From Candidatus Rokuibacteriota bacterium (lineage in GTDB: Bacteria; Methylomirabilota; Methylomirabilia; Rokubacteriales; CSP1-6), in the NCBI GenBank assembly GCA_030647435.1, contig JAUSJX010000141.1:52394-116393 (forward strand): 64,000 nt of DNA, in the 5' to 3' direction. This document shows positions 1 to 11,858 of this stretch, in pieces (position 1 is the first letter of the stretch; the number at the start of each line of letters is the position of its first letter). The position numbers and the translations under genes were made by a program. The notes under the pieces were generated by a model that saw nothing but the letters and a program-made list of their open reading frames with translations, searched no databases and was not told where the DNA came from.

Positions 1-1379
1 AGGTCGAGGGCGCGGGTCGCGGCCGGCATCACGGCCAGCATGGTCGCGGCCACGACGGCCCCAGTCCACCGTCCGGCGCGGCGCCACGCGCTCACGGTGA
101 GAACGGCCGCTCCCGCCGCCATGATCAGCGCCGTCCGGGTCACCAGCGGCTGGAGCGCGGACCAGGGCGGCAGCGGAGAAGCCTGGGCGGCGGCAGTCTC
201 CTTGCGCGTATAGACGTCGGTGGCCGAGAAGACTATGTCCAGGAAGCCCTTGCCGTCGCCGGCGGCCACCAGGCCGAGCCCCACGGCGACGAGCGCGAAG
301 AGCCCCGCGTGGACGAGCGCCGGCGCGCGGCCGCGCTCCCCGCGCTCGGTCCACCAGCGCGCCGCCAGCAGCGCGACGGCCGGGTACGCCGGCAGACCGT
401 AGTGGGGCAGCTTGAAGGTTGTCAGCGTGAAGAGGCCCCAGAGCCCGATCACCCACACGGCGAGGGCGACCCAGGGGGTCTCCTCGGGATCGCGCCAGGC
501 CCGCCTGCGGTAGAGCGACACCACCATGAGCCCGGCGGGAAGGACCCACGGAAATGCGCCCAGCGCGGCCACGGCAAGGAACTCCGCGGTGGCAAGCGGG
601 ACGTCTTCATCCGGAAAGTGGCGGAGCCCGACCGCATTAAGGATGTGGTTGTCCACAACAGCGTACCAGAGAAAGCCCGGATGCCGGAGCGCGCTCCAGG
701 CATACCAGCCCAGACCCACCAGTAGCATGAGCGTCACTCCCTCCCACGGCAGCCACTGGCGGACAGGCCGCAAGCGCCCACAGGCCGCGAGCGCGACGGC
801 GACGGCAGCCAGGGGCCACATGAGCCCGAGCGGGTCCTTGGCGAGCGACGCAACGCCGAGCGCGGCGCAGCCTGCGACAGCCCAGCGCCTTGCGCGGCGT
901 CCTTCGCCCGTCACGCCCAGCAGGAGGCCCGTCAGGCCGATCTGGATGGCGGCCGCGAAGAGCGTCTCGGGACGGACGTAGCGGCCGAAGACCGCGAAGA
1001 GCGCGCAGGACAGGAGCGCGGCGGCGGCGAGGAGCCCGGCGCCCGGACCGAGGAGACGCGCGCCGAGAAACGCCGTCGCGGCGGCGGCGGCCGCCGCGGC
1101 CGCGAGCGAGGGCAGCCGCGCGGCCCACTCGGACGGACCCCAGGCGCGGAAATCGAGCGCGATCAGCCAGTACAGGAGCGGCGGCTTGTCGAAGTAGCGG
1201 ACGCCGTTGAGTCTCAAGTCGAGCAGATCGCCGGAGGCCCAGGCCTCGCGCGCGATCTCGGCATGCTGGCCCTCGCCCGGATCGTCGAACGGCGCTCGCC
1301 CGAGGCCGGGCAGGAGGAGCGAGAGCGCCAGGAGCGCCGCAAGGACCGCGACGGCCCATGACGCCGCCGGGCGCGTCAC
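1..1379 (-). CDS. GT-C fold glycosyltransferase, ArnT/PMT-like (lipid-carrier dependent); 3' end runs off the left edge
   Basis: Absent from the ORF track because it is open at the window edge. Hand translation of the minus strand from GTG at 1379 gives an uninterrupted frame to position 3: VTRPAASWAVAVLAALLALSLLLPGLGRAPFDDPGEGQHAEIAREAWASGDLLDLRLNGVRYFDKPPLLYWLIALDFRAWG...SLAKDPLGL...FKLPHYGLPAYPAVALL. This is the multi-TM, YFDKPPL-type pattern of ArnT/PMT transferases. GTGA start/stop overlap with the upstream ATPase gene. Confidence 0.7.
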   Translation of the reverse strand, partial: MTRPAASWAVAVLAALLALSLLLPGLGRAPFDDPGEGQHAEIAREAWASGDLLDLRLNGVRYFDKPPLLYWLIALDFRAWGPSEWAARLPSLAAAAAAAAATAFLGARLLGPGAGLLAAAALLSCALFAVFGRYVRPETLFAAAIQIGLTGLLLGVTGEGRRARRWAVAGCAALGVASLAKDPLGLMWPLAAVAVALAACGRLRPVRQWLPWEGVTLMLLVGLGWYAWSALRHPGFLWYAVVDNHILNAVGLRHFPDEDVPLATAEFLAVAALGAFPWVLPAGLMVVSLYRRRAWRDPEETPWVALAVWVIGLWGLFTLTTFKLPHYGLPAYPAVALLAARWWTERGERGRAPALVHAGLFALVAVGLGLVAAGDGKGFLDIVFSATDVYTRKETAAAQASPLPPWSALQPLVTRTALIMAAGAAVLTVSAWRRAGRWTGAVVAATMLAVMPAATRALD

Positions 1380-2074
1380 GCTGCGGGCGCGGCGGGCCCC
1401 GGCGCGAGGCGGCCGTCGCGGAGCCGCAGCACGCGATCGGCACCGGCCTGCGTCTCGGGACGGTGCGTGACGAGCACTACGGCTGCGCCGCGCGCAGCAG
1501 TCGAGGCGCGAAGCTCGGCCAAGATCACCCGCGCGTGCTCGTCGTCGAGGTTGCCGGTCGGCTCGTCGGCCAGCAGCAGCGGCGGGCGATTGAGGATCGC
1601 GCGGCAGTAGGCGACGCGCTGCTGCTCCCCGCCCGAGAGCTGGGCCGGGTAGTGGTCCTTGCGGTGCGCGACCCCCATCCGCTCGAGAAGGGCCAGCGCC
1701 TCGCGCCGCGCCACGGCGCGGTCCCGGCCGACGTAGCGCGCCGCGAGCACCACGTTATCGAGCGCGGTCAGCCCGGAGAGCAGCAGGAAGGACTGGAACA
1801 CGTAGCCGATGGAGGAGCCGCGCACCCGCGCCTGGGCGCGGCGGCCGAGGTGGCTCACGCGCTCGTCGCCGAGCCAGACCTCGCCCGCGGACGCCGGCTC
1901 GAGCAGCCCCAGGAGATTCAGCAGGGTGGTTTTGCCCGACCCCGACGAACCTGTCACCGCCACGAACTCGCCGCTCCGGACCTCGAGATCGATGTCGTGG
2001 AGCACCGGCACGGGAGCGCCGCCCGGGCCGAGAAAGGTCTTGGAGAGCCCCGTCGCCCGCAGCAAGGGGATCAA
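1376..2074 (-). CDS. ABC transporter ATP-binding protein (LolD/MacB/FtsE type)
   Basis: 232-aa ORF. Walker A GSSGSGKTT, signature LSGGEQQRV, Walker B LLLADEPTGNLD. Start codon is TTG at 2074, preceded by GAGGG. Confidence 0.9.
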   Translation of the reverse strand: MIPLLRATGLSKTFLGPGGAPVPVLHDIDLEVRSGEFVAVTGSSGSGKTTLLNLLGLLEPASAGEVWLGDERVSHLGRRAQARVRGSSIGYVFQSFLLLSGLTALDNVVLAARYVGRDRAVARREALALLERMGVAHRKDHYPAQLSGGEQQRVAYCRAILNRPPLLLADEPTGNLDDEHARVILAELRASTAARGAAVVLVTHRPETQAGADRVLRLRDGRLAPGPAAPAA

Positions 2075-2198: not shown

Positions 2199-3383
2199 TC
2201 AACTGCCGCGCCGGATCGCTTCGGCGGGCGAGAGCCGCGCGATCCGGAGCGTCGCGTAGCCGGCCGCGAGCGCCCCCAGCGCGAGCGAAAAGACAAGGGC
2301 GAAGGCGAGGAGGCGCGGGGAGAAGAGGAAGAGCTGCTGCCCGTCGCGGAGCACGCGCGCGTCCACCGCGGTGCCGATGCTCCACGCCAGCAGCACGCCG
2401 GCCACCCCGCCCCAGAGGCTCACGCGGATTCCCTCGCCCAACACCTCGCCGAGAAGATCGAGATCCGTGGCGCCCAGCGCGCGCTTGATGCCGAAGTCCC
2501 GGATGCGCTCGAAGACGGCCGCCGTCACCGTGTTGGCGAGCGACAGGCCTCCGATGAGAAGCCCAAGGGCGCCGATCCCGAGCAGGAGCGCGGAGAAGAA
2601 GGCGGTCGACTGTCGGAGGAGGCGGCTCAGCTCGCCGGGAATCGTGACGTTGAGGCCGGCCACCGTCGCCTGGATGCGGCGGGCCAGAGCGTCCGGGTCC
2701 TCGCCGTCGCGCCAACCAACCGCGGCGCCGGTGTTGAGGTCTCCGCGGCGCAGGGAGCCCGAACCGAAGACCTGGACGAGGAGCGGGTCCCGCCGGAGCC
2801 ACAGCTCGCGCGTGTCCTCGATGGGGACGAGCGCGAAGCGATCGGGGGCCGTGAAGGTCTTCTCGAGGATGCCGACGGCGGTGAAGTCCTGGCCGCCGAG
2901 CGTCACGGAGGCGCCGGCGCTGAGATGCCGCGAGGCGGCGAAGTCCGCACCCAGCACCGTGGCCCGCCGATCGCCCGGGCGGAGCGGCCGCCCCGCGGCA
3001 ACCGGCAGCTCGCGGTAGTGGCGGTTGGGGATGGGCACGCTCACGTCCATGCCCATGATGAGCTCCTGGGTCAGCGTGAGAAAGTGCGACGTGCTGGTAT
3101 TGAGCGGCAGCATCACCTGCGCCTGGACGCCGGAGACTCCGGGCACGGCGGCGATCTCGCGGATCTTGGCCGCGGAGAGGAGCCCGCCGGCGGTGAAGCC
3201 CGTACCCATGCCCATCCCCTCGCCCGCGACGGAGATCTGGCCCAGCACGAAGCGGTCGCCGCCCTCGATGAAGCGCGTGATGCGCTCGGCCATGGCGCCC
3301 AGCGACACCAGTCCCGCCACCCCAACGGCGATGCCGACGACCGTAAAGGAGTAGCCCCGGGGCAAAAACTCCCGGAGCCTCAC
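2199..3383 (-). CDS. ABC transporter permease, FtsX/MacB/LolE type
   Basis: C-terminal 394 aa of the 723-aa track ORF. GTG at 3383 forms a GTGA overlap with the upstream stop. N-terminal TM FTVVGIAVGVAGLVSLGAM, a large extracytoplasmic domain, then three C-terminal TMs (LLLGIGALGLLIGGLSLANTV, LWGGVAGVLLAWSIG, AFALVFSLALGALAAGYATL). The upstream Arg/Pro-rich extension looks like a GC-frame artefact. Confidence 0.85.
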   Translation of the reverse strand: MRLREFLPRGYSFTVVGIAVGVAGLVSLGAMAERITRFIEGGDRFVLGQISVAGEGMGMGTGFTAGGLLSAAKIREIAAVPGVSGVQAQVMLPLNTSTSHFLTLTQELIMGMDVSVPIPNRHYRELPVAAGRPLRPGDRRATVLGADFAASRHLSAGASVTLGGQDFTAVGILEKTFTAPDRFALVPIEDTRELWLRRDPLLVQVFGSGSLRRGDLNTGAAVGWRDGEDPDALARRIQATVAGLNVTIPGELSRLLRQSTAFFSALLLGIGALGLLIGGLSLANTVTAAVFERIRDFGIKRALGATDLDLLGEVLGEGIRVSLWGGVAGVLLAWSIGTAVDARVLRDGQQLFLFSPRLLAFALVFSLALGALAAGYATLRIARLSPAEAIRRGS

Positions 3384-5710
3384 CAGCCGAGCCTCGACTC
3401 CACGGGCCGGCCGCGCCAGCGGCGCAGCCACCGGGTGACGCGCACGATCGCGAAGAAGACGGTGAGCGAACCCCGCATGCGAAGCCGCATGCGCAGAAAG
3501 GCGCCGCCCGCCAGGACTCCCAGGACGCTGTCGAGGATCCCCAGCCGGTTGCGCGGCTGGAGAAAGACCTCGAGGAAGGCGGGCTCGTAGTAGCGGCGGA
3601 TGAAGCGGACGAACGGGCTGACGCCGCGATGGACGCGCCGCACGTACCCGTTGAAGCGCCGCGCCTCGAAGCGGTCCTCGGCGAAGGCGGCGAGGATCTC
3701 CGCGGCCGCCATCTCGCCCGTCTGCATGGCGATGTAGACGCCCGAGGAGAAAATGGGATCCACGAAGGCCAGCGAGTCGCCGACGCAGAGGAAGCGGTCG
3801 CCCGCCACCGGGTGTGTCAGGTAGGAGAAGTTCGCCGCGCTCCGCACGGGTGTGACGCGGCGGGCCCCGCGGAGCCCCTCCGCGACCCGGCGGCAGCGGA
3901 AGATCATCTCCTCGTACAGCGCCTCGAGCGTGCCCTCCCGCCCCCGCGCCGTCTTCGCGTGGAGGACGCAGCCGATGCTCGTCAGGCCGCCCGCGAACGG
4001 GATCCACCAGAACCAGCCGTCCTCGAAGATGTAGAGACGGATCAACCCCTCGTCGCGCCCCTGCCAGCGCGGCGCGCCCTCGTAATGGGCGAAGAGGGCG
4101 ACCTTGCCGAGGCCCGGGATGGGAGCGCGCCGGCCCACGCGGCGCGAGGCGAGAAAGCCGTCCCGGCCGCTGGCGTCGACGACGAAGCGCGCGCGAAGCG
4201 CCCGCGACTCGCCGCCCTCGCGGATCCCGACGGTCGCGCCGTCCGCGTCGAACTCCACCCGCTCCACCGTGGCCGGCTGAAGCACGCTCGCGCCCGGCTC
4301 CTTGGCGGCGTGCTCGAAGAGGATCTGGTCGAACTCCGCCCGAGGCACCTCGTAGCTGTAGTTCGGCCACGGCTGGCCCTCGCGGAAGTAAAAGCGGTAC
4401 TCGAGATCGGACTCCTGGTCGTGGAAGGCCGCCCCGTACTTGACGAGGAAGCCGTGCCGTTCGATCCGCTCGCGGACACCGAGCCGGTCGAGCAGCGGCA
4501 TCATGGCCGGCAGGAGCGATTCGCCGACGTGAAAGCGCGGGAAGACCTCGCGCTCCGCGATCGCCACGCGCAGGCCCCCGCGGGCGAGGAAGGTCGCGGC
4601 CGTCGAGCCGGCCGGCCCGCCACCCACGACAAGGACATCATAGTCCGCCGGCGGTGACTCGGGCCGCGCGGCGCCGGGCAGCGACGCGGCCAGCCGTTCC
4701 TGTGAAAATATCCGCCGTACGAGGGGCGAGACAAGGTTGGGACCCGGACGCCGTCCGAGCCCGAGCGCCCCCTGCACCGCCGCTGCCGCCGCCAGCACGG
4801 GCAGCGCCGCGGTTGCCAGGGCCGCGCGGCGCATGACGCAGGCCCGCGGGTCCCACCACCAACCCCGCCAGCTTTGGGCGATGCGGTCGAGCATGAAGGC
4901 TCCCATCGCCATCGCGTAGGCTCCGTAGTTGTAGCGGTACGGCGCCGCGAAGCGGTGCATCTCGCGGTGACGCTGCTTGAGGCGCGCGGGCGTGAGCGGC
5001 CTCAGGAGCACCGCCGCGACGATCCCCGCATCCCGGACCCAGCGCCGGATGCCGCGGGCTATGAGATACGTCGCCACGGCGGTGCCGTCGCGGAGCGGCC
5101 GGAAGTGGCTCGGCCGTCCCGCCCCGAGCCCCGGCGTCACCGGGACTTCGCGGATGGCGAAGCCCGCCGCGGCGGCCCGCAAGAGCATCTCGCTCTCGAG
5201 CACGAAGCCGCCGCGCCGCGGCCTCACCGCCTCGAGCAGCTTCCGCGGGTAGACGCGGAACCCGGACTGCGTGTCGGCGACGGCCTGCCCGGTCAGCCAG
5301 TTGATGAAGAAGCCGGCCACCCGCTGCGCGTTCAGGCGGGCGGGCTCCATGGAGGCGCCGCCATCGGAGAGCCGGCTCCCGATGACGAGCGTTCCCGGCA
5401 GGGCGGCGGACGCCGCGAGAAGCTGCGGAATGTCATCGGGATCGTGCTGCCCGTCTCCGTCGAGCGTGAGCACACGCTCGGCGCCGCGGGAGAGCGCCTC
5501 GGCGAAGCCCGCGCGCAGCGCCCCGCCCTTGCCGCAGCGACCGGCGAGGCGGAGCACGGCGGCGCCCGCGGCCGCGGCCGCGTCGGCGCTGCCGTCGGAG
5601 GAGCCGTCGTCCACGACGAGGACGGGGCCATGGCGCACCGCGCGCGCCACGAGAGCGCCGATCGTCGGGGCCTCGTTGAAGACCGGGATGACGGCGACGT
5701 GGTCACTCAT
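3380..5710 (-). CDS. Fusion protein: GT2 polyprenyl-phosphate glycosyltransferase-like domain (GtrB/ArnC type), hydrophobic linker, flavin-dependent halogenase domain
   Basis: 776 aa. N-terminus VIPVFNEAPTIGALV...VVDDGSSDGS...LDGDGQHDP is a GT2 DxD-type fold. Hydrophobic segments follow (YGAYAMAMGAFML, AALATAALPVLAAAAAVQGALGLG). C-terminal half has DYDVLVVGGGPAGS (GxGxxG), FPRFHVGESLLP, GWFWWIPF (WxWxIP) and FVDPIFSSGVY. Confidence 0.8.
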   Translation of the reverse strand: MSDHVAVIPVFNEAPTIGALVARAVRHGPVLVVDDGSSDGSADAAAAAGAAVLRLAGRCGKGGALRAGFAEALSRGAERVLTLDGDGQHDPDDIPQLLAASAALPGTLVIGSRLSDGGASMEPARLNAQRVAGFFINWLTGQAVADTQSGFRVYPRKLLEAVRPRRGGFVLESEMLLRAAAAGFAIREVPVTPGLGAGRPSHFRPLRDGTAVATYLIARGIRRWVRDAGIVAAVLLRPLTPARLKQRHREMHRFAAPYRYNYGAYAMAMGAFMLDRIAQSWRGWWWDPRACVMRRAALATAALPVLAAAAAVQGALGLGRRPGPNLVSPLVRRIFSQERLAASLPGAARPESPPADYDVLVVGGGPAGSTAATFLARGGLRVAIAEREVFPRFHVGESLLPAMMPLLDRLGVRERIERHGFLVKYGAAFHDQESDLEYRFYFREGQPWPNYSYEVPRAEFDQILFEHAAKEPGASVLQPATVERVEFDADGATVGIREGGESRALRARFVVDASGRDGFLASRRVGRRAPIPGLGKVALFAHYEGAPRWQGRDEGLIRLYIFEDGWFWWIPFAGGLTSIGCVLHAKTARGREGTLEALYEEMIFRCRRVAEGLRGARRVTPVRSAANFSYLTHPVAGDRFLCVGDSLAFVDPIFSSGVYIAMQTGEMAAAEILAAFAEDRFEARRFNGYVRRVHRGVSPFVRFIRRYYEPAFLEVFLQPRNRLGILDSVLGVLAGGAFLRMRLRMRGSLTVFFAIVRVTRWLRRWRGRPVESRLGW

Positions 5711-6834
5711 GCCGCTTGCCCGACGACAAGGGCCGTACGGCAGCCGCCGCGGGCGATCCCGTGCACCAGCGCGGGCGCGCGCCCCGCGCGCGCGTCGAGC
5801 GCTGCGGCGGCGACACGGAGGGCGCCGAGTCCTCCATGCTGGCCGAAGAGCGGCGCCAGCGACACCGGATCCCGCACGCCGTCGGCCGCGAGCAGCCGCA
5901 GCTCCCAGTCATCGAGCGCCGGGTCGCCGTTGCCCGAGCCGTAGCAGCGCGCCAGAGACGCGGCCTCGACGCCCGCCTGGTCCAACGCCCGGCGCGCGAT
6001 GGCGCGCGCGTCGCGCCGGCCGGCAGGGGCCGTGTGCGGAGCCACCGGGATGCCGCCCCAGGCGGCACCCAGGACTTCGGCATGGATCGCGGCGCCGCGC
6101 GCCCGCGCCGCCTCCCTCTCCTCCAGCACCAGGAAGGTGGCGCCTTCGCCGAGCACGGGCCCGTTGTGGTCGTGAGCAAAGGGGCGGCAGCCTTCGGGAG
6201 CACCGCCGCCCATCGGAGAGAGCGCCCCCAATCGGGCCAGGTTCCGGTAGACGTCGCTGAAGAGCTCGTCCACGCCGCCGGCGACCACGGCCTCCGCCCG
6301 CCCGTCGGCGATGAGCGCGGCCGCCCGCGCCACGGCCAGATCGCCGGCCACCGTCGCCTGGTTGAGCGTCACGGAGGACGCCTTGGCGCCGATGGCGATG
6401 GCCGCCACTGCCGCCATGCTGTTCATCACCGTGCTCGGGAACACCATCGGCGAGAGCCCCGCCGGCCCGCGGCGGAGGAAGCCGTCGAAGAACTCCGCGC
6501 CCGAGCGGAAGTCGCCGAATTCGCTGCCGACGACGAGCCCCAGCCGCGGGCCGCCCTCGAGCCCGGCCTCCTCGACGGCCAGGCGGCAGGCGGCCAGGGT
6601 CATGCGGCAGATCCGCGAGAGCCGGCGCACGCTGTCGGAGTCAAGCAGCGCCATGAGCCGCGCGTCGCTAACCTCGGCAGCCAGGCGGCTCGCGCACCCG
6701 TCCAGGGTGAAGGCTTTGAGTGGCGCAATGGTGGCCCTCCGCCGCTCGAGCGCCTGGGCCACGGCCGCTGTGCCGCCGGCCCCGGCCGCGCTGACCGAGC
6801 CCATCCCCGTGATCACGACCCGGCGCCCGGACAT
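5707..6834 (-). CDS. Ketosynthase-like protein lacking the active-site Cys and both His (chain-length-factor/KS-beta-like partner)
   Basis: ATG at 6834 (MSGRRVVITGMGSVSAAG...). The position of the KS TACASG motif reads TLNQATVAGD. The usual HGTGT and GH motifs read GSGNGDP and FGQHGG. TAATG and ATGA overlaps with its neighbours. Confidence 0.75.
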   Translation of the reverse strand: MSGRRVVITGMGSVSAAGAGGTAAVAQALERRRATIAPLKAFTLDGCASRLAAEVSDARLMALLDSDSVRRLSRICRMTLAACRLAVEEAGLEGGPRLGLVVGSEFGDFRSGAEFFDGFLRRGPAGLSPMVFPSTVMNSMAAVAAIAIGAKASSVTLNQATVAGDLAVARAAALIADGRAEAVVAGGVDELFSDVYRNLARLGALSPMGGGAPEGCRPFAHDHNGPVLGEGATFLVLEEREAARARGAAIHAEVLGAAWGGIPVAPHTAPAGRRDARAIARRALDQAGVEAASLARCYGSGNGDPALDDWELRLLAADGVRDPVSLAPLFGQHGGLGALRVAAAALDARAGRAPALVHGIARGGCRTALVVGQAA

Positions 6835-8021
6835 TATCGGCCGAAGATCAGGCTCACGTTGTGGCCGCCGAAGCCGAAGGAGTTGGACAGCGCGGCGTGC
6901 AGCTCGACGGGGCGCGCCGTCTGAGCGACGCAGTCGAAGGGCACGTCCGGGTCCGGATCGGTCAGATTGGCGGTCGGCGGAATCAGCCCGTGCTGCAGCG
7001 CGAGGAGGGTCGCCACCGCCTCGACGCTGCCCGCCGCCGCCATGGTGTGGCCGACGAGCGACTTGGTCGAACTCACCAGCACGCGGCCCTCCCCGAAGAC
7101 GCGCGCCATGGCCAGGGCCTCGACACGGTCGTTCTGCGGCGTCCCCGTGCCGTGCGCGTTGACGTAGCCGATGTCGCCCGGCTCGCGCCCGGCCGCGTCG
7201 AGCGCATCGGACATGGCGCGGATCATCCCCTCGCCCTCCGGGTGCGGCGCCGTGACGTGGTGGGCGTCCGTGGTGACGCCGGCGCCCAGGAGCTCGCCGA
7301 GCACGCGCCCGCCGCGCCGGCGGCAGTGCTCGGAGTCTTCGAGCACGACAAACGCGGCTGCTTCGCCGATGGACATGCCGCGCCGCCCGCGGTCGAAGGG
7401 CCGGCACGGCTCGGGGTCGAGCAGCTTGAGCGCATTGAAGCCCATGAAGCAGATGCGCGTGATGGCATCCACGCCCCCCGCGAGCGCCAGCGGGGTCGCG
7501 CCGGAGCGGATGAGGTCGGCGCCGAAGGCTATGGAGGCCGCGCCGGAGGCGCAGGCCATGACCACGGTCTCCCTGGGCCCGCCGAGCCCCAGCCGCCAGC
7601 CGAGCATCTCCGCGTGGCTCGCCGGCAGGATGGAGCGGAGCGCCCCGATCCTTGGCGAGGGCCGCAGGCGAAGCGCCTCTTCACAGTACCAACCCTCGCC
7701 CTCGAGCATGCCGCCGCCCACGGCGCCGACGAAGAGCGCCATGTCCGTCCGGTCCCGCGGCGCGAGGTCGGCGTCGGCCACGGCCTCGCGGGCCGCGGCA
7801 AGGGCCAGGCGGTCGGCGCGCGAGCGCCGGCGAGAGACGCCGAGGGCGCCGACGACGTCGGCGGGCACCTCCGCCGCGATGCGCGACCGAAAACCCTCCG
7901 TGTCGATGACGGTCAGCGGCCGGATGGCGCACTGGCCCGAGGCCAGGCCGGCCCAGAAGGTCTTAACACCGGCGCCGTAGGGGCTGACGACGCCGAGGCC
8001 GCTGACGACGACGCGCGTCAT
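6834..8021 (-). CDS. Beta-ketoacyl-ACP synthase (FabF/KS-alpha type, catalytically intact)
   Basis: ATG at 8021 (MTRVVVSGLGVVSPYG...). Cys motif VVMACASGAASIA, His motifs NAHGTGTPQND and VGHTMAAAGS. Confidence 0.9.
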   Translation of the reverse strand: MTRVVVSGLGVVSPYGAGVKTFWAGLASGQCAIRPLTVIDTEGFRSRIAAEVPADVVGALGVSRRRSRADRLALAAAREAVADADLAPRDRTDMALFVGAVGGGMLEGEGWYCEEALRLRPSPRIGALRSILPASHAEMLGWRLGLGGPRETVVMACASGAASIAFGADLIRSGATPLALAGGVDAITRICFMGFNALKLLDPEPCRPFDRGRRGMSIGEAAAFVVLEDSEHCRRRGGRVLGELLGAGVTTDAHHVTAPHPEGEGMIRAMSDALDAAGREPGDIGYVNAHGTGTPQNDRVEALAMARVFGEGRVLVSSTKSLVGHTMAAAGSVEAVATLLALQHGLIPPTANLTDPDPDVPFDCVAQTARPVELHAALSNSFGFGGHNVSLIFGR

Positions 8022-8287
8022 TTCAACTTGGAGAGGACGAAGCGGGACAGGGTGTCGAGGGAAAGAAAATCGTCGGCCAGGCTCTCGGTCTCGTCGATGA
8101 CGATGCCGAAGCGCTCCTCCATCGCGACGGAGAGCTCGATGAAGTCCAGCGAGTCGAGGCCGAGCGAGCCCTCGACGCCCTTGGGCAGCGTGGTTTCGAG
8201 CGTCATCTCGGCCGCGCGGCCCGGATCGAACTTCAGGCGCTCGACGATCAGCGTTTTGAGCTCGTCCAGGATCTCCTTCTGCGTCAT
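8018..8287 (-). CDS. Acyl carrier protein
   Basis: 89 aa, MTQKEILDELKTLIVERL...LGLDSLDFIELSVAMEERFG with a DSL phosphopantetheine-attachment serine. ATGA overlaps on both sides. Confidence 0.9.
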   Translation of the reverse strand: MTQKEILDELKTLIVERLKFDPGRAAEMTLETTLPKGVEGSLGLDSLDFIELSVAMEERFGIVIDETESLADDFLSLDTLSRFVLSKLK

Positions 8288-9120
8288 GCGATCCGCCTCC
8301 GCCGGGGCCGCGCCGCCCCGCGCATCTGGTATGGGCTCTGGCTCCACGCGAGCCGCGCCGACTCGCCCCGCCATGCGCCCTGTAAGCGTAGCGGTCCCGT
8401 GGCGCCGCCGTCGCGCGCGAGGGCCAGGACCGCCACGGGCTCGCAAGCCAGCATCTCGCCGAGGCGCTGCCGCACGCCTCCCGTCTCCCGCCGCCCGCCA
8501 CGCCTCTGATCGAAGCTGAGCGTGCCCTCGCCCGGCTCGAGCCAGAGGCAGCCGGCCGCCTCCACCAGCGGCCGCGCGAGCCGCCCCCGCGCTCGCGCGA
8601 AGAGATTTTCGCACTCCTCGAAGATCTCGACAGCCAGGACCAGCGCGCGGTCGCAGGCTCCAGATTCCAGGAGCGCCGCCGCGCGCGCGATGGCTCTCAT
8701 CGTCGCCGTGGGCCCGCCGATCAGGATCTCGTACGGGCCTGTGAGCCCGAACTCGATGGCGACCTCGGCCGGCACCGCGGCGGCCGCCGTGTAGGGGAAA
8801 TACATGCCGCCGATCCGCGCCTCGATGAACTCGCGGTTGGAGGCCGCATACGCGGCAGCGGTGGCGAAGAGAAGCCCTGTCCGCTCGCCCGCGATGATCT
8901 CGGCCCCTACCCCAGCATCTTCCAGCATGGCGCCCACAGCCGCAACCCCCAGGAGAGATTCGCGCCGCGAGCGCCGGAAGCGCTCGTGGGTGAAGGCGGG
9001 CCGCTCGATGCTCAGGACGGCGCGTCCCACGGCGGCCCGTGCGGCGTCCGAGGGCACGGCCGCCGCGCCAGGTCCCCAGCCCGACAGCAGCCCCACGGCC
9101 CGGATCGCCGGAGCGCGCAT
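8284..9120 (-). CDS. Truncated thiolase-fold / KS N-terminal-like protein without a catalytic Cys
   Basis: 278 aa. KS-like N-terminal half (LLGVAAVGAMLEDAGV..., GLTGPYEILIGGPTATMRAIARAAALLESG) in which the Cys position is Thr/Ala-type. No C-terminal His motifs. Confidence 0.65.
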   Translation of the reverse strand: MRAPAIRAVGLLSGWGPGAAAVPSDAARAAVGRAVLSIERPAFTHERFRRSRRESLLGVAAVGAMLEDAGVGAEIIAGERTGLLFATAAAYAASNREFIEARIGGMYFPYTAAAAVPAEVAIEFGLTGPYEILIGGPTATMRAIARAAALLESGACDRALVLAVEIFEECENLFARARGRLARPLVEAAGCLWLEPGEGTLSFDQRRGGRRETGGVRQRLGEMLACEPVAVLALARDGGATGPLRLQGAWRGESARLAWSQSPYQMRGAARPRRRRIA

Positions 9121-10295
9121 CAGGCGCTCTCGATCACGAGGGCCGCGTTGCAGCCGCCGAAGCCGAGCGACGTGGACAAGCTCACGCGCGGCCGTACGGC
9201 GCGCGGCGAGCCCTGGACGCAGTCGATGTCGCAGGCCGGGTCGCGTTCTTCGAGGCCGAGCGTGGCCGGCACCTGGCCGTAGCGCCCCGCGAGGAGGCAG
9301 ACGATGGCTTCGAGCGCCGCCGCCGCTCCCATGGTGTGGCCGAGCGCGCCCTTGATCGAGTTGACAGGCACCTCGCCTCCGCGAGCGCCGAGCACGCGCC
9401 GGAGCGCGGCCGCCTCGATTGGATCGTTCAGCGGCGTCGCGGTGCCGTGGGCGCTGACGAAGTCGATAGCGTCAGGTCCGACCCCGGCGTCCGCCAGCGC
9501 CCTACGCATGGCGCGCTCGATGCCGCGGCCGTCCGGGTCGGGCGCCGCGATGTGGGCGCCGTCGCTGGCGCTGCCGTAGCCGAGGAGCGTGCCGAGCCGG
9601 CGCGCGCCGGCCTCTCGCTCCCGCCGAAGCAGGAGCAGCCCCGCAGCCTCGCCCAGAAGGAGCCCGCTCCGGCGCCGGTCGAAGGGCCGCACGCGCTCCC
9701 GCGTGAGCGAGCGGAGGCCGTCGAAACCGCGCATCACGAAGCGGCAGAGGATGTCGTAGCCGCCGGCGACGACGGCGTCGGCCTCGCCGCGGCGGAGCAT
9801 GTCGGCCCCGATAGCGAGCGCGGTGGCGCCCGAGGCGCAGGCCGTCGAGACCGTGACGGCGGGACCACGGGCGCCCAACCAGCGCGCGAGCCGGTGCGCC
9901 GGCGCGTCATAGAGCGCGGCGCGGAGACGCCTCGCCGATCCGCCGCACAGGGCGCGCTCGCCCTCTTCCACCCCGCCGAGCGCCGTGCCCACGACGACCG
10001 CGAGGCGCTCGGGTTCGACGTCCAGCGGCCGCTCGCCGGCCTGCACGCAGAGATCGTCGGCGGCCGAGACGAGCAGCCGTGTCGCGCGGCAGTCGGGGAC
10101 GCGCCGCCAGTCCACCGCGCGCGTGAGCTTCTTGATCTCGCCGCCGCGCCCCACGCGGAGATCCGCCACCGGAAAACGCTCCACGGCCGAGGTGCCGTCG
10201 GCGCCCGTGAGCAGCCCCGACCAGAAGGTGTCGAGGTCCTGTCCAATGGGCGTGACCACACCGGCGGCCACGATGGCGATGCGCTCGGCTGGCAT
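9120..10295 (-). CDS. Beta-ketoacyl-ACP synthase (second catalytically intact KS)
   Basis: MPAERIAIVAAGVVTPIG... from ATG at 10295, the internal Met of the 403-aa track ORF, 1 nt after the upstream stop. VSTACASGATALA, SAHGTATPLND, GHTMGAAAA. Confidence 0.9.
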   Translation of the reverse strand: MPAERIAIVAAGVVTPIGQDLDTFWSGLLTGADGTSAVERFPVADLRVGRGGEIKKLTRAVDWRRVPDCRATRLLVSAADDLCVQAGERPLDVEPERLAVVVGTALGGVEEGERALCGGSARRLRAALYDAPAHRLARWLGARGPAVTVSTACASGATALAIGADMLRRGEADAVVAGGYDILCRFVMRGFDGLRSLTRERVRPFDRRRSGLLLGEAAGLLLLRREREAGARRLGTLLGYGSASDGAHIAAPDPDGRGIERAMRRALADAGVGPDAIDFVSAHGTATPLNDPIEAAALRRVLGARGGEVPVNSIKGALGHTMGAAAALEAIVCLLAGRYGQVPATLGLEERDPACDIDCVQGSPRAVRPRVSLSTSLGFGGCNAALVIESA

Positions 10296-10296
10296 A

Positions 10297-11073
10297 TTAA
10301 AGGAAGGGGGAGTAGTACATGCGGAAGGCACGTATCGCGCCGGGCTCGGTGTCGTAAACGCCGGAGGCGAAGAAGCTGCGCTCGGCCCGATCGAAGGCGA
10401 CCCGGCCCGGCTCTTCGGGCTCGTTGGGGTCGTAGACGATGAACTCGATGAACCGGCCCTCGTAGATCCGGTAGTCGTAGGCGATGACGGTGTGGTTCAG
10501 CTCGACCTTGGGCAGGTTGGTCACGAGAAGCTGGACCATGCGCCCCGCGTCGAGCTCGGCCAGAGTCTCCCGCGCCACGCGCTCCTGCTGCCCGCCCGTT
10601 ACGGGGAAGACCACGCGCCAGTTGGTCCACTGGATAAAGGTCCAGACGAACCCGCCGAGGCCGGCCTTCACGGCCGCCTCCTGCGCCGCGGAGAATTCGT
10701 AGAGCGAAGCGTAGCCGGGAATCACGACCCGTTCCGCGGGAGGGAGCGGATCCTCCCACGGCGCCCGCGCCACGACCTCGCTGACGAGGCGGGTGTAGAC
10801 GGGAGGCTCGACGCGCGGCAGCTCCGGAGCGAAGCGCGCGAAGCGATGGAACTGCGTGACAGCGCGCGCCATGACAAAGCAGTAATTGGCGTACATGTCG
10901 GTCTTGCCCGGATTCTTCCAGCGGATGTCGTTGCGGAACGCGAACGTATCCACCCCGAACCGGAGGGCGGCGCCCGACGTGGGCCGCGGCGCGCTCCGTT
11001 CGATCGGGGGCGCGGTCGCGCAGCCGGCGAGAACCAGCATCAGGCAGAGCAAGCGGGCAACATGGCGCATCAT
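10297..11073 (-). CDS. Lipoprotein of unknown function
   Basis: 258 aa. Signal peptide with lipobox MMRHVARLLCLMLVLAGC. The mature part contains spaced YANYCFVMA ... NHTVIAYDY ... IVYDPNE (Cys/His/Asp). Confidence 0.7.
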   Translation of the reverse strand: MMRHVARLLCLMLVLAGCATAPPIERSAPRPTSGAALRFGVDTFAFRNDIRWKNPGKTDMYANYCFVMARAVTQFHRFARFAPELPRVEPPVYTRLVSEVVARAPWEDPLPPAERVVIPGYASLYEFSAAQEAAVKAGLGGFVWTFIQWTNWRVVFPVTGGQQERVARETLAELDAGRMVQLLVTNLPKVELNHTVIAYDYRIYEGRFIEFIVYDPNEPEEPGRVAFDRAERSFFASGVYDTEPGAIRAFRMYYSPFL

Positions 11074-11093: not shown

Positions 11094-11858
11094 TCAGCCC
11101 TGGATGGAATAGCCCCCATCAACCGGGATGGCCGCTCCGGTGATGAAATCGGACGCGGGACTGGCAAGAAAGACGGCCACGCCGGCCATGTCCTGCTCCA
11201 CACCCCAGCGCTTCGCCGGCGTGCGCCTGAGCACGCTCTCGTGCAGCCCCTCGATCTGCTGGCGCGCCCGCTGCGTGAGCTCCGTGTCGATCCAGCCGGG
11301 CAGCACCGCGTTGACCTGGATGTTGTCCGCCGCCCACCCGGCGGCCATGGCCTTGGTCAGCTGGACCATGCCGCCCTTGGAGGCCGCGTAGGCCGGCGCG
11401 AACGAGGCGCCGAAGATGGACATCATGGAGCCGATGTTGATGACCTTGCCGCCGCCCTGCTTCTTCATCACGGGGTGGCAGGCGCGGCTCGCGAGGAAGG
11501 CGCTGGTCAGGTTGACGTCGATGACCTGGCGCCACTCGCCGAGCGCGAGGCTCTCGACGGGCTTGCGGATGTTCATGCCGGCGTTGTTGACGAGGATATC
11601 GAGCCTGCCGAAGCGCGCCACGGTCGCCTTGACGAGCGCTTCGACCGAGCCCTCATCGGCGACGTCCACCTCGATGGCCTCCGCCTCGCCACCGAGTCCA
11701 CGCAGCTCAGCGACGGCCCGCGCGCTCTTCTCGCGATTGCGCGCCGCCACCACGACGGCCGCGCCCGCCTCCGCGAGCCCGCGCCCCATGCCGAGCCCGA
11801 TGCCGCCGTTACCGCCCGTGACCACCGCCACGCGACCCTTCAGATCGAAAGCGCCCAC
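11094..11858 (-). CDS. SDR family oxidoreductase (3-oxoacyl-ACP reductase-like); first gene of the operon
   Basis: 254 aa. GTG start at 11858 preceded by AAGGGGGAA. TGGNGGIGLG cofactor motif and YAASKGG (YxxxK). Confidence 0.9.
   Translation of the reverse strand: MGAFDLKGRVAVVTGGNGGIGLGMGRGLAEAGAAVVVAARNREKSARAVAELRGLGGEAEAIEVDVADEGSVEALVKATVARFGRLDILVNNAGMNIRKPVESLALGEWRQVIDVNLTSAFLASRACHPVMKKQGGGKVINIGSMMSIFGASFAPAYAASKGGMVQLTKAMAAGWAADNIQVNAVLPGWIDTELTQRARQQIEGLHESVLRRTPAKRWGVEQDMAGVAVFLASPASDFITGAAIPVDGGYSIQG

Follow-up and report, generated by a model that had tools for sequence, protein, structure and literature searches.

Flavin-dependent halogenases have been studied mostly as soluble enzymes that tailor antibiotics. 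The variant B halogenases (PltA, Mpy16, Bmp2, ChlB4, and CndH) are stand-alone proteins acting on pyrrolyl-, tyrosyl-, and salicyl-type thioesters. Halogenase genes also occur in bacterial pigment clusters: in a 2013 study of Lysobacter pigments, the ketosynthase (KS) was in every case followed by a protein similar to the N-terminal half of a chain length factor (CLF), and genes for a "dolichyl-phosphate mannose synthase" and a halogenase were found to flank this KS/half-CLF pair in Xanthomonas, Variovorax, and others, an arrangement that is conserved (PMC3691225). Aryl polyene (APE) lipid clusters, such as apeA-R of Escherichia coli CFT073 and that of Xenorhabdus doucetiae, combine a type II KS and its truncated or inactive partner with a dedicated acyl carrier protein (ACP), a FabG-like reductase, a membrane-acting family 2 glycosyltransferase (GT2), and dedicated envelope export. 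The Xenorhabdus lipid is an N-acetylgalactosamine (GalNAc)-1-phosphate-diacylglycerol with the aryl polyene on its sugar, and ApeJ has been proposed to place the sugar onto a lipid phosphate and then to acylate it, the proposed acceptor being a glycerolipid phosphate and not polyprenyl phosphate (10.1101/2020.12.19.423268). The gene described here lies in a 64,000-nucleotide stretch of DNA (the window; contig JAUSJX010000141.1, positions 52,394 to 116,393) from a Candidatus Rokuibacteriota bacterium and encodes a GT2 and a flavin-dependent halogenase in a single polypeptide. It is one genuine open reading frame (ORF), conserved in a subgroup of the Rokubacteriales. Judging from sequence comparisons, we lean toward reading its product as an enzyme with two functions and a membrane anchor that belongs to a pared-down relative of the APE/xanthomonadin lipid pathway.

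The limits of the gene and its parts are given in Table 1. Its ATG overlaps the stop codon of the upstream KS-like gene (ATGA), and its own stop shares nucleotides with the GTG of the next gene, FtsX (GTGA). Long open frames are common at the G+C content of this DNA (∼72%), and a wrong frame can run on for hundreds of codons with no stop; the codon-position signal was therefore checked. The G+C content at third codon positions (GC3) was 0.84-1.0 in 16 of 16 150-nucleotide blocks of the ORF, those of the junction and linker included, and this evenness across the junction indicates that a single frame is coding throughout. The junction DNA (4630-4780, ...RRIFSQERLAASLPGAARPESPPADYDVL...) is free of stops. 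An original prediction made from the DNA alone, that one polypeptide is encoded, is therefore borne out: no stop or frameshift separates the halves in the assembled sequence, and the fusion recurs in independent assemblies. All of the motifs that it named were found in the translation, namely VIPVFNEAP (residues 7-15), VVDDGSSDGS (32-41), and LDGDGQHDP (83-91) in the GT2 half and VVGGGPAGS (361-369), GESLLP (396-401), GWFWWIPF (565-572), and FVDPIFSSG (649-657) in the halogenase half. In Pfam searches, residues 7-161 scored 69 bits for Glycos_transf_2 (cut-off 23.3), and residues 356-709 were covered by FAD_binding_3 and by Trp_halogenase at 103 bits (cut-off 21). In an alignment of 35 full-length homologues, to which all statements of invariance refer, the GT2 core, the helical segment, and the halogenase were all conserved, and the linker was the most variable part in both length and sequence (alignment columns ∼424-460). 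The ∼15-60 residues between "...SQERLA" and "ADYDVLVVGGG" differ among the homologues, as expected of a fusion linker. An AlphaFold2 model built from the homologue alignment (mean predicted local distance difference test score (pLDDT) 76.8; predicted template modeling score (pTM) 0.53) was likewise least confident at the linker, with pLDDT <50 at residues 347-351.

The C-terminal half had been predicted to be a flavin-dependent halogenase, and every sequence hallmark of such an enzyme was present. The GxGxxG motif (G363, G365, and G368; 4607-4624), Lys424 (4439-4441), and FxDPxFSxG were invariant, as was WxWxIP (W566-F-W568-W-I570-P571; 3998-4015) except at its x positions. Lys424, within GFLVKYGAAF, aligns with the lysine of "fpkKfgaaw" in PltA (5dbj) and with the same conserved Lys column in ChlB4 and Mpy16. 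We take this column to be that of the catalytic lysine of flavin halogenases (Lys79 in PrnA). Sequence searches of the PDB returned ChlB4 (1e-66), PltA (1e-64), and Mpy16 (1e-59), then FasV, CmlS, and CndH, with geranylgeranyl-type reductases at ∼1e-12. Foldseek searches with the model gave Mpy16, PltA, ChlB4, and CndH at E values of 1e-29 to 1e-26, with target-normalized template modeling scores of 0.68-0.76; squalene epoxidase (7e-18) and geranylgeranyl reductase (1e-16) came behind them. The top 20 were halogenases, the best of them with target-normalized scores of 0.73-0.78, except 3nix, which was deposited as a flavoprotein/dehydrogenase. The model is thus not that of a reductase or monooxygenase devoid of the lysine, the outcome that would have spoken against a halogenase. 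The score against the CmlS equivalog model (NF033113) was 204.6 bits, below its curated cut-off of 900. By sequence and predicted fold, the domain is closest to the carrier-protein-dependent enzymes ChlB4, PltA, Mpy16, and CndH and not to the reductases. That its closest solved relatives are of this type and that an ACP gene lies in the operon suggest, by analogy, that its substrate may be presented on the ACP. The fold, FAD motif, lysine, WxWxIP, and FxDPxFSxG are all held in common with the variant B halogenases (30-32% identity in structural alignment), but whereas those are soluble proteins, the domain here is joined to a membrane glycosyltransferase and ends in a hydrophobic and basic tail.

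This tail, the last 45 residues, consists of a conserved hydrophobic helix and a basic, Arg-rich stretch and is probably a membrane-binding helix. It is also found in other halogenases of the subfamily (L074, L061, L052, and others), among them split Rokubacterial and proteobacterial members, which suggests that this halogenase subfamily is membrane-associated. To our knowledge, soluble PltA-type enzymes carry no such hydrophobic, Arg-rich tail. Because the tail is present in stand-alone halogenases, membrane association is probably older than the fusion. The earlier claim that the fusion would tether the halogenase to the membrane thus describes something that probably did not begin with the fusion. 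Elsewhere in the genome (C117:243-1376) lies another, distant halogenase-like gene, with ∼30% identity to the halogenases of APE clusters.

At the N terminus, a GT2 of the dolichyl-phosphate mannose synthase (DPMS)/GtrB/ArnC-like kind was found, as predicted, followed by a segment of predicted helices that is partly hydrophobic. Its invariant residues are D34, D35, K61, D84, D86, and D146-T-Q-S-G, with the DxD motif encoded at 5453-5461. ArnC, GtrB, and DPMS share with it the GT-A fold and DxD and are held in the membrane by helices C-terminal to the catalytic domain, as the helical segment may do here, but the similarity is weak: in the PDB sequence search, structures of ArnC and DPMS matched residues 6-162 and 6-201, respectively, at E values of 4e-10 (ArnC 9bhc) to 3e-6. 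The match to the N terminus of ApeJ (29% identity, E 4e-19) was better than that to ArnC. The AlphaFold2 model places helices at residues 207-343, of which only residues 295-320 are strongly hydrophobic, and in split relatives this segment is part of the GT2 gene. Its probable arrangement is a membrane hairpin with two passes (∼260-278 and 297-319), which would put both domains on the cytoplasmic side, a placement that fits the charge distribution and the need of the halogenase for reduced flavin.

A search of 5.8 billion proteins for homologues of the fusion yielded more than 100 full-length clusters (770-814 amino acids, 58-95% identity) from JGI, ENA, NCBI, and Logan assemblies. Some carry at NCBI merely the label "tryptophan 7-halogenase" and come from metagenome-assembled genomes (MAGs) of Methylomirabilota (Rokubacteria). 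When clustered at 50% identity (1.8 billion representatives), a single full-length fusion representative was left, the other matches being stand-alone halogenases or GT2s or unrelated fusions (e.g. ABC ATPase-halogenase). A genomic locus was called fused when a single frame showed homology to all three segments, namely the GT2 core, the membrane segment, and the halogenase. Outside the window, this applies to 10 loci (L002 and L007-L015, i.e. nine genome records and one metagenome contig) and in part to L030. The length of the open frame was dropped as evidence of fusion after one case, G027/L004, in which a match to residues 2-776 lies in an 859-codon frame and the membrane segment in another. 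In that locus (L004:9826-12180, G027:C5), the GT2 core and halogenase share a frame and the membrane segment is encoded in a different one; this indicates read-through and suggests two separate genes affected by an indel or frameshift. Across 201 genomes of the phylum, the full-length form was found in the genus of the window and a few other genera, and in many sister genera residues 1-350 and 340-776 were matched by two adjacent stretches on the same strand, GT2 first and halogenase second. At the one such junction that was read (L003), the GT2 gene encodes 361 amino acids, ends past the helical segment, and has a stop that overlaps the ATG of the halogenase gene (ATGA).

A maximum likelihood tree of the halogenase domain placed all fused forms in one Rokubacterial subclade, together with a few split forms and duplicated second copies. 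At least 3-4 changes between the fused and split states were counted in the first tree, a count that was reconsidered after L004 had been corrected and the truncated L018 and the duplicated second copies discounted. The fused forms may have had one origin (within an unresolved polytomy) followed by splits or a few separate origins. The second halogenase copies stand in tandem directly after the first (L003:9966-11171, L004:13243-14433, L016:2495-3679, and L017:10430-11632; 59-62% identity) and group as a clade of their own. Two MAGs labeled Verrucomicrobiia (L011, DATJIR010000409.1; L017, DATJFY010000047.1) contain a complete Rokubacterial-type operon at 59-68% identity and nest within Rokubacterial clades, probably through misbinning or else recent transfer.

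Outside the Rokubacteria, the next relatives of the halogenase domain (37-43% identity, with a similar tail) belong to Burkholderiales, Lysobacterales, Methylococcus, Acidithiobacillus, Nitrosomonas, and others, one genome per species having been scanned. With the E. coli CFT073 ape genes as probes for annotation, many of the sampled proteobacterial loci were seen to have the gene order halogenase, ApeD-like acyltransferase, ApeJ-type GT2, ApeQ, ApeC, and ApeO, with ApeM, ApeE, and ApeH nearby in some; in Ramlibacter (L074), the LPLAT and a LolA_3 protein were confirmed by Pfam. The KS with a "half-CLF" and the nearby DPMS-like GT2 and halogenase are common to the Rokubacterial operon, the xanthomonadin-type clusters (Xanthomonas, Variovorax, and Lysobacter relatives), and the halogenase-bearing APE clusters (Burkholderiales, Methylococcus, and Acidithiobacillus). 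Both halves of the fusion gave reciprocal best matches: when the GT2s and halogenases of APE clusters were searched against the genome of the window, the domains of the fusion were returned first, with 61-88 bits for the GT2s (next match ≤50) and 254-258 bits for the halogenases (next match ≤101). The operon has further features of the APE/xanthomonadin type, namely KSs with a truncated or KS-like partner (two pairs), an ACP, and a short-chain dehydrogenase/reductase (SDR)-type ketoreductase. A locus from an uncultured bacterium (L028; CBCXVS010000004.1, DOM43_bin32) bridges the two kinds of cluster: KS1, partner, ACP, KS2, and partner in the Rokubacterial style are accompanied by a 46%-identical halogenase and by ApeD, F, G, I, J (55% identity to that of E. 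coli), and L, and it may represent an evolutionary intermediate.

In Proteobacteria, the halogenase gene comes first, followed by other genes, including the LPLAT, and then by a separate GT2 gene, whereas in the Rokubacterial fusion the GT2 precedes the halogenase in one polypeptide. ApeJ is itself a fusion, but of a GT2 with an acyltransferase. Compared with the APE lipid clusters, a MacB-type ABC pump and a lipoprotein stand in place of ApeM/L/N, and two KS/partner pairs are served by one ACP; compared with the xanthomonadin-type clusters, no aryl-starter genes could be identified in the operon. In the literature, no paper was found on Rokubacteria and halogenases, on both Pfam names together, or on a GT2-halogenase fusion. 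The statement in the original prediction that this domain combination had not been described thus stands for the fused form only: the two genes are known as neighbors in xanthomonadin-type clusters (PMC3691225), and they are adjacent in sister genera. The novelty lies in the covalent joining and in the smaller gene set; both parts, and the fact that they occur together, were known before.

On the reading favored here, the GT2 would be fastened by the helical hairpin to the cytoplasmic side of the inner membrane and would transfer a sugar from its nucleotide to a lipid phosphate. The sugar-lipid so formed would serve as an anchor, in line with the GalNAc-1-phosphate-diacylglycerol suggested for ApeJ. 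An acyl or polyketide chain would be assembled by the reductase, the carrier protein, and both KS/partner pairs, and the halogenase would use reduced flavin, oxygen, and halide to chlorinate or brominate an electron-rich carbon of the carrier-bound chain, in the manner of PltA, Mpy16, ChlB4, and CndH. The chain would then be joined to the sugar of the sugar-lipid, and the MacB-type pump and lipoprotein would move the product toward the outer membrane. In the bacterial family of the window, the ArnT-like enzyme may add a further sugar in the periplasm, and the HpnJ-type enzyme perhaps also remodels the head group along with this GT-C glycosyltransferase. Fusion would fix both activities at a ratio of 1:1 and place halogenation at the site of membrane assembly.

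If this is so, the fusion clade represents a halogenase permanently joined to a membrane glycosyltransferase, in a soil phylum that is abundant and uncultured. The coexistence of fused and split forms (a "Rosetta stone") argues that the GT2 and halogenase of APE/xanthomonadin-type clusters cooperate physically, and it suggests that halogenation takes place at a membrane assembly step in these widespread pathways, which is an open point for the xanthomonadins. Rokubacteria would then be likely producers of halogenated envelope lipids, possibly of use as soil biomarkers, and the compact operon of 8-10 genes appears suited to heterologous expression.

Several observations weigh against this reading. 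ApeI and ApeP dehydratases were absent from the operon, and none was detected in the genome (tblastn, E 1e-4); the same search found no ApeH in the genome, and the operon held no aryl-starter genes, although XanB2 was not searched for. There was no clear ApeM/L/N set, the nearest being one weak ApeM-like piece (E 6e-7) elsewhere on the contig, and no flavin reductase is encoded in the operon. The short KS-like partner showed no match to ApeC by blastp or phmmer, and profile alignment with hhalign (18 Rokubacterial versus 13 ApeC sequences) gave a probability of 2% and an E value of 0.024; in the PDB it found only weak matches to the N terminus of FabF. The KS proteins are equally close to FabF and ApeO, and the PDB ranking did not separate ApeO (6qsp) from FabF. 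The similarity of the GT2 to ApeJ is modest, at 29% identity, and its top NCBIfam matches are polyprenyl-phosphate transferases. The predicted membrane topology is read from weak hydropathy, and the inter-domain geometry of the model is uncertain (pTM 0.53). Because the dehydratase, starter, and transporter hallmark genes were not found, the chain may be no aryl polyene at all. Since these genes are missing, the short partner gave no significant match to ApeC, and the KSs stand as near to FabF as to ApeO, the operon was not filed as an APE cluster but as a reduced relative of one.

The first alternative to be weighed is that the GT2 is a true polyprenyl-phosphate sugar synthase (ArnC/GtrB-like) paired with the ArnT-like GT-C enzyme encoded three genes downstream, the halogenase being merely co-anchored. 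A carrier-linked sugar would then be formed on the inner side, flipped, and transferred in the periplasm to a lipid of the envelope. The top NCBIfam matches of the N-terminal domain (AglJ, PpgS, a Dol-P-hexose transferase, and ArnC) and the ArnC and DPMS structures agree with this, and downstream in most loci of the bacterial family lies a gene for a GT-C of ArnT-like profile. The scores nevertheless lie far below every equivalog cut-off (ArnC NF007986, 43.8 versus 529 bits; AglJ TIGR04182, 88.9 versus 325 bits; PpgS NF058614, 74.4 versus 370 bits). Moreover, even where the GT-C is absent, as in L006 of the related family f2 and in APE clusters of Proteobacteria, the GT2 keeps its place beside the halogenase, which speaks against partnership with the GT-C as its primary role, and a search of the genome with the GT2s of APE clusters returns this domain first. 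We regard this alternative as possible but doubtful. The assignment to the polyprenyl-phosphate type made in the original prediction thus keeps its family resemblance, but the reciprocal-best relatives are ApeJ-type GT2s. The ArnC-like and ApeJ-like readings can coexist, because both put a sugar on a lipid phosphate.

Whether the C-terminal domain is a halogenase at all may also be questioned, since it shows weaker matches to the monooxygenase QhpG, the maturases LodB/GoxB, and geranylgeranyl reductases, and no obvious aromatic substrate follows from the operon; a flavin monooxygenase or reductase acting on a lipid chain would accommodate both points. We consider this improbable. Lys424, WxWxIP, and FxDPxFSxG are invariant, the best matches in sequence and fold are to proven halogenases by 10-40 orders of magnitude, and related Xanthomonas clusters with such a gene yield brominated pigments.

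An equally improbable alternative is that the operon serves hopanoid head-group chemistry, with the GT2 and/or the GT-C replacing HpnI, HpnJ contracting the sugar ring, and a halogenated chain being carried on a hopanoid-sugar lipid. HpnJ-type radical SAM enzymes turn a sugar ring into a cyclitol by contraction. The gene directly after the GT-C encodes an HpnJ equivalog, which scores 767 bits (cut-off 577.6) and is the sole above-cut-off match in the genome; squalene-hopene cyclase and HpnH are encoded on the same contig ∼50 kb away (C112:505-4294). Neither HpnI nor HpnK had a match above cut-off in the genome, and at least 12 related loci have the GT-C/HpnJ pair after the operon. In L006 and L022, however, HpnJ and the GT-C are not adjacent to the operon, L025 has only an HpnJ fragment ∼4 kb past the exporter genes, and the core module is common to proteobacterial APE clusters with no hopanoid link. 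The adjacency may be plain synteny, because serA follows HpnJ. We know of no halogenated or polyketide-acylated hopanoid. A canonical hopanoid role for the GT2 was rejected, as the HpnI model gave no above-cut-off match in the genome. HpnJ may be fed by another glycosyltransferase or may act on the sugar-lipid of the operon itself.

A more far-reaching proposal, which we put forward as speculative and rather unlikely, is that the operon makes an undescribed class of halogenated envelope glycolipid, not an aryl polyene, whose chain is non-aromatic and built without dedicated dehydratases, with a membrane-tethered halogenase at the anchor site and a head group remodeled by the ArnT-like and HpnJ-type enzymes. 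If true, the glycolipid product would possibly be tied to hopanoid chemistry in a genome lacking HpnI and HpnK matches above cut-off. Finally, an assembly or sequencing artifact, in which a lost stop or an indel has joined two genes, can be set aside with near certainty, for although wrong frames are long at high G+C and G027/L004 did look fused by read-through, here the three segments are homologous in one frame, as they are in 10 other loci and more than 100 clusters with linkers of differing length, and GC3 is uniform over the junction.

Table 1. Parts of the fusion gene and neighboring genes of the operon, with positions in the window unless a locus is named.
Feature	Position	Strand	Remarks
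Fusion gene	3380..5710	-	776 amino acids; single ORF, zero internal stops
GT2 (GT-A) catalytic domain	5096..5710	-	Residues 1-205; PF00535, alignment, ApeJ and ArnC matches
Helical, partly hydrophobic segment	4676..5095	-	Residues 206-345; AlphaFold2 helices, hydropathy, split GT2 gene of L003
Junction/linker	4646..4675	-	Residues 346-355; alignment variability, low pLDDT, DNA read
Flavin-dependent halogenase domain	3518..4645	-	Residues 356-731; Pfam, NCBIfam, PDB matches, invariant residues, Foldseek
C-terminal tail, hydrophobic and basic	3380..3517	-	Residues 732-776; alignment, AlphaFold2 model, stand-alone halogenases
SDR ketoreductase, first operon gene	11094..11858	-	ApeQ-like, 28% identity
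Conserved lipoprotein	10297..11073	-	Matches no family
Ketosynthase KS1	9120..10295	-	ApeO, 36% identity
Short KS-like partner, 278 amino acids	8284..9120	-	Resembles KS N-terminal half alone; cf. Lysobacter ORF16
Acyl carrier protein	8018..8287	-	LGLDSLD; ApeE, 32% identity
Ketosynthase KS2	6834..8021	-	ApeO, 37% identity
Full-length KS-like partner	5707..6834	-	Pfam: only N-terminal KS domain and Ketoacyl-synt_2
MacB/FtsX-type ABC permease	2199..3383	-	
ABC ATPase	1376..2074	-	
ArnT/PMT_2-like GT-C glycosyltransferase	1..1379	-	Runs off left window edge; full gene L001:17616-19379
HpnJ-type B12-radical SAM enzyme	L001:16087-17526 (window -1913 to -474)		Directly follows GT-C; serA next

The order of the operon (Table 1) was held at 64% identity in an independent metagenome contig and in most of the ∼25 Rokubacterial loci long enough to show it, and synteny was conserved down to ∼50% identity. 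The core from KS1 to the ABC ATPase was also found in a second family (L006), where the GT-C and HpnJ genes are not adjacent. Sister operons contain, between the lipoprotein and KS1 genes, a gene whose product resembles the acyltransferase (C-terminal) half of E. coli ApeJ (L004:4566-5147, L005:16245-16760, L009:2396-3130, L012:2697-3293, and L017:2541-3350). It is not in the operon of the window, where a single nucleotide separates the lipoprotein stop from the KS1 start; a homologue is encoded on another contig of the same genome (C140:128380-129093), beside an ApeQ-like SDR gene. The best solved match of KS1 was chain B of PDB 9s5h/9s5i (1.5e-66), a heteromeric "3-oxoacyl-ACP synthase," chain C of which scored comparatively well with the KS-like partner (1.8e-30).

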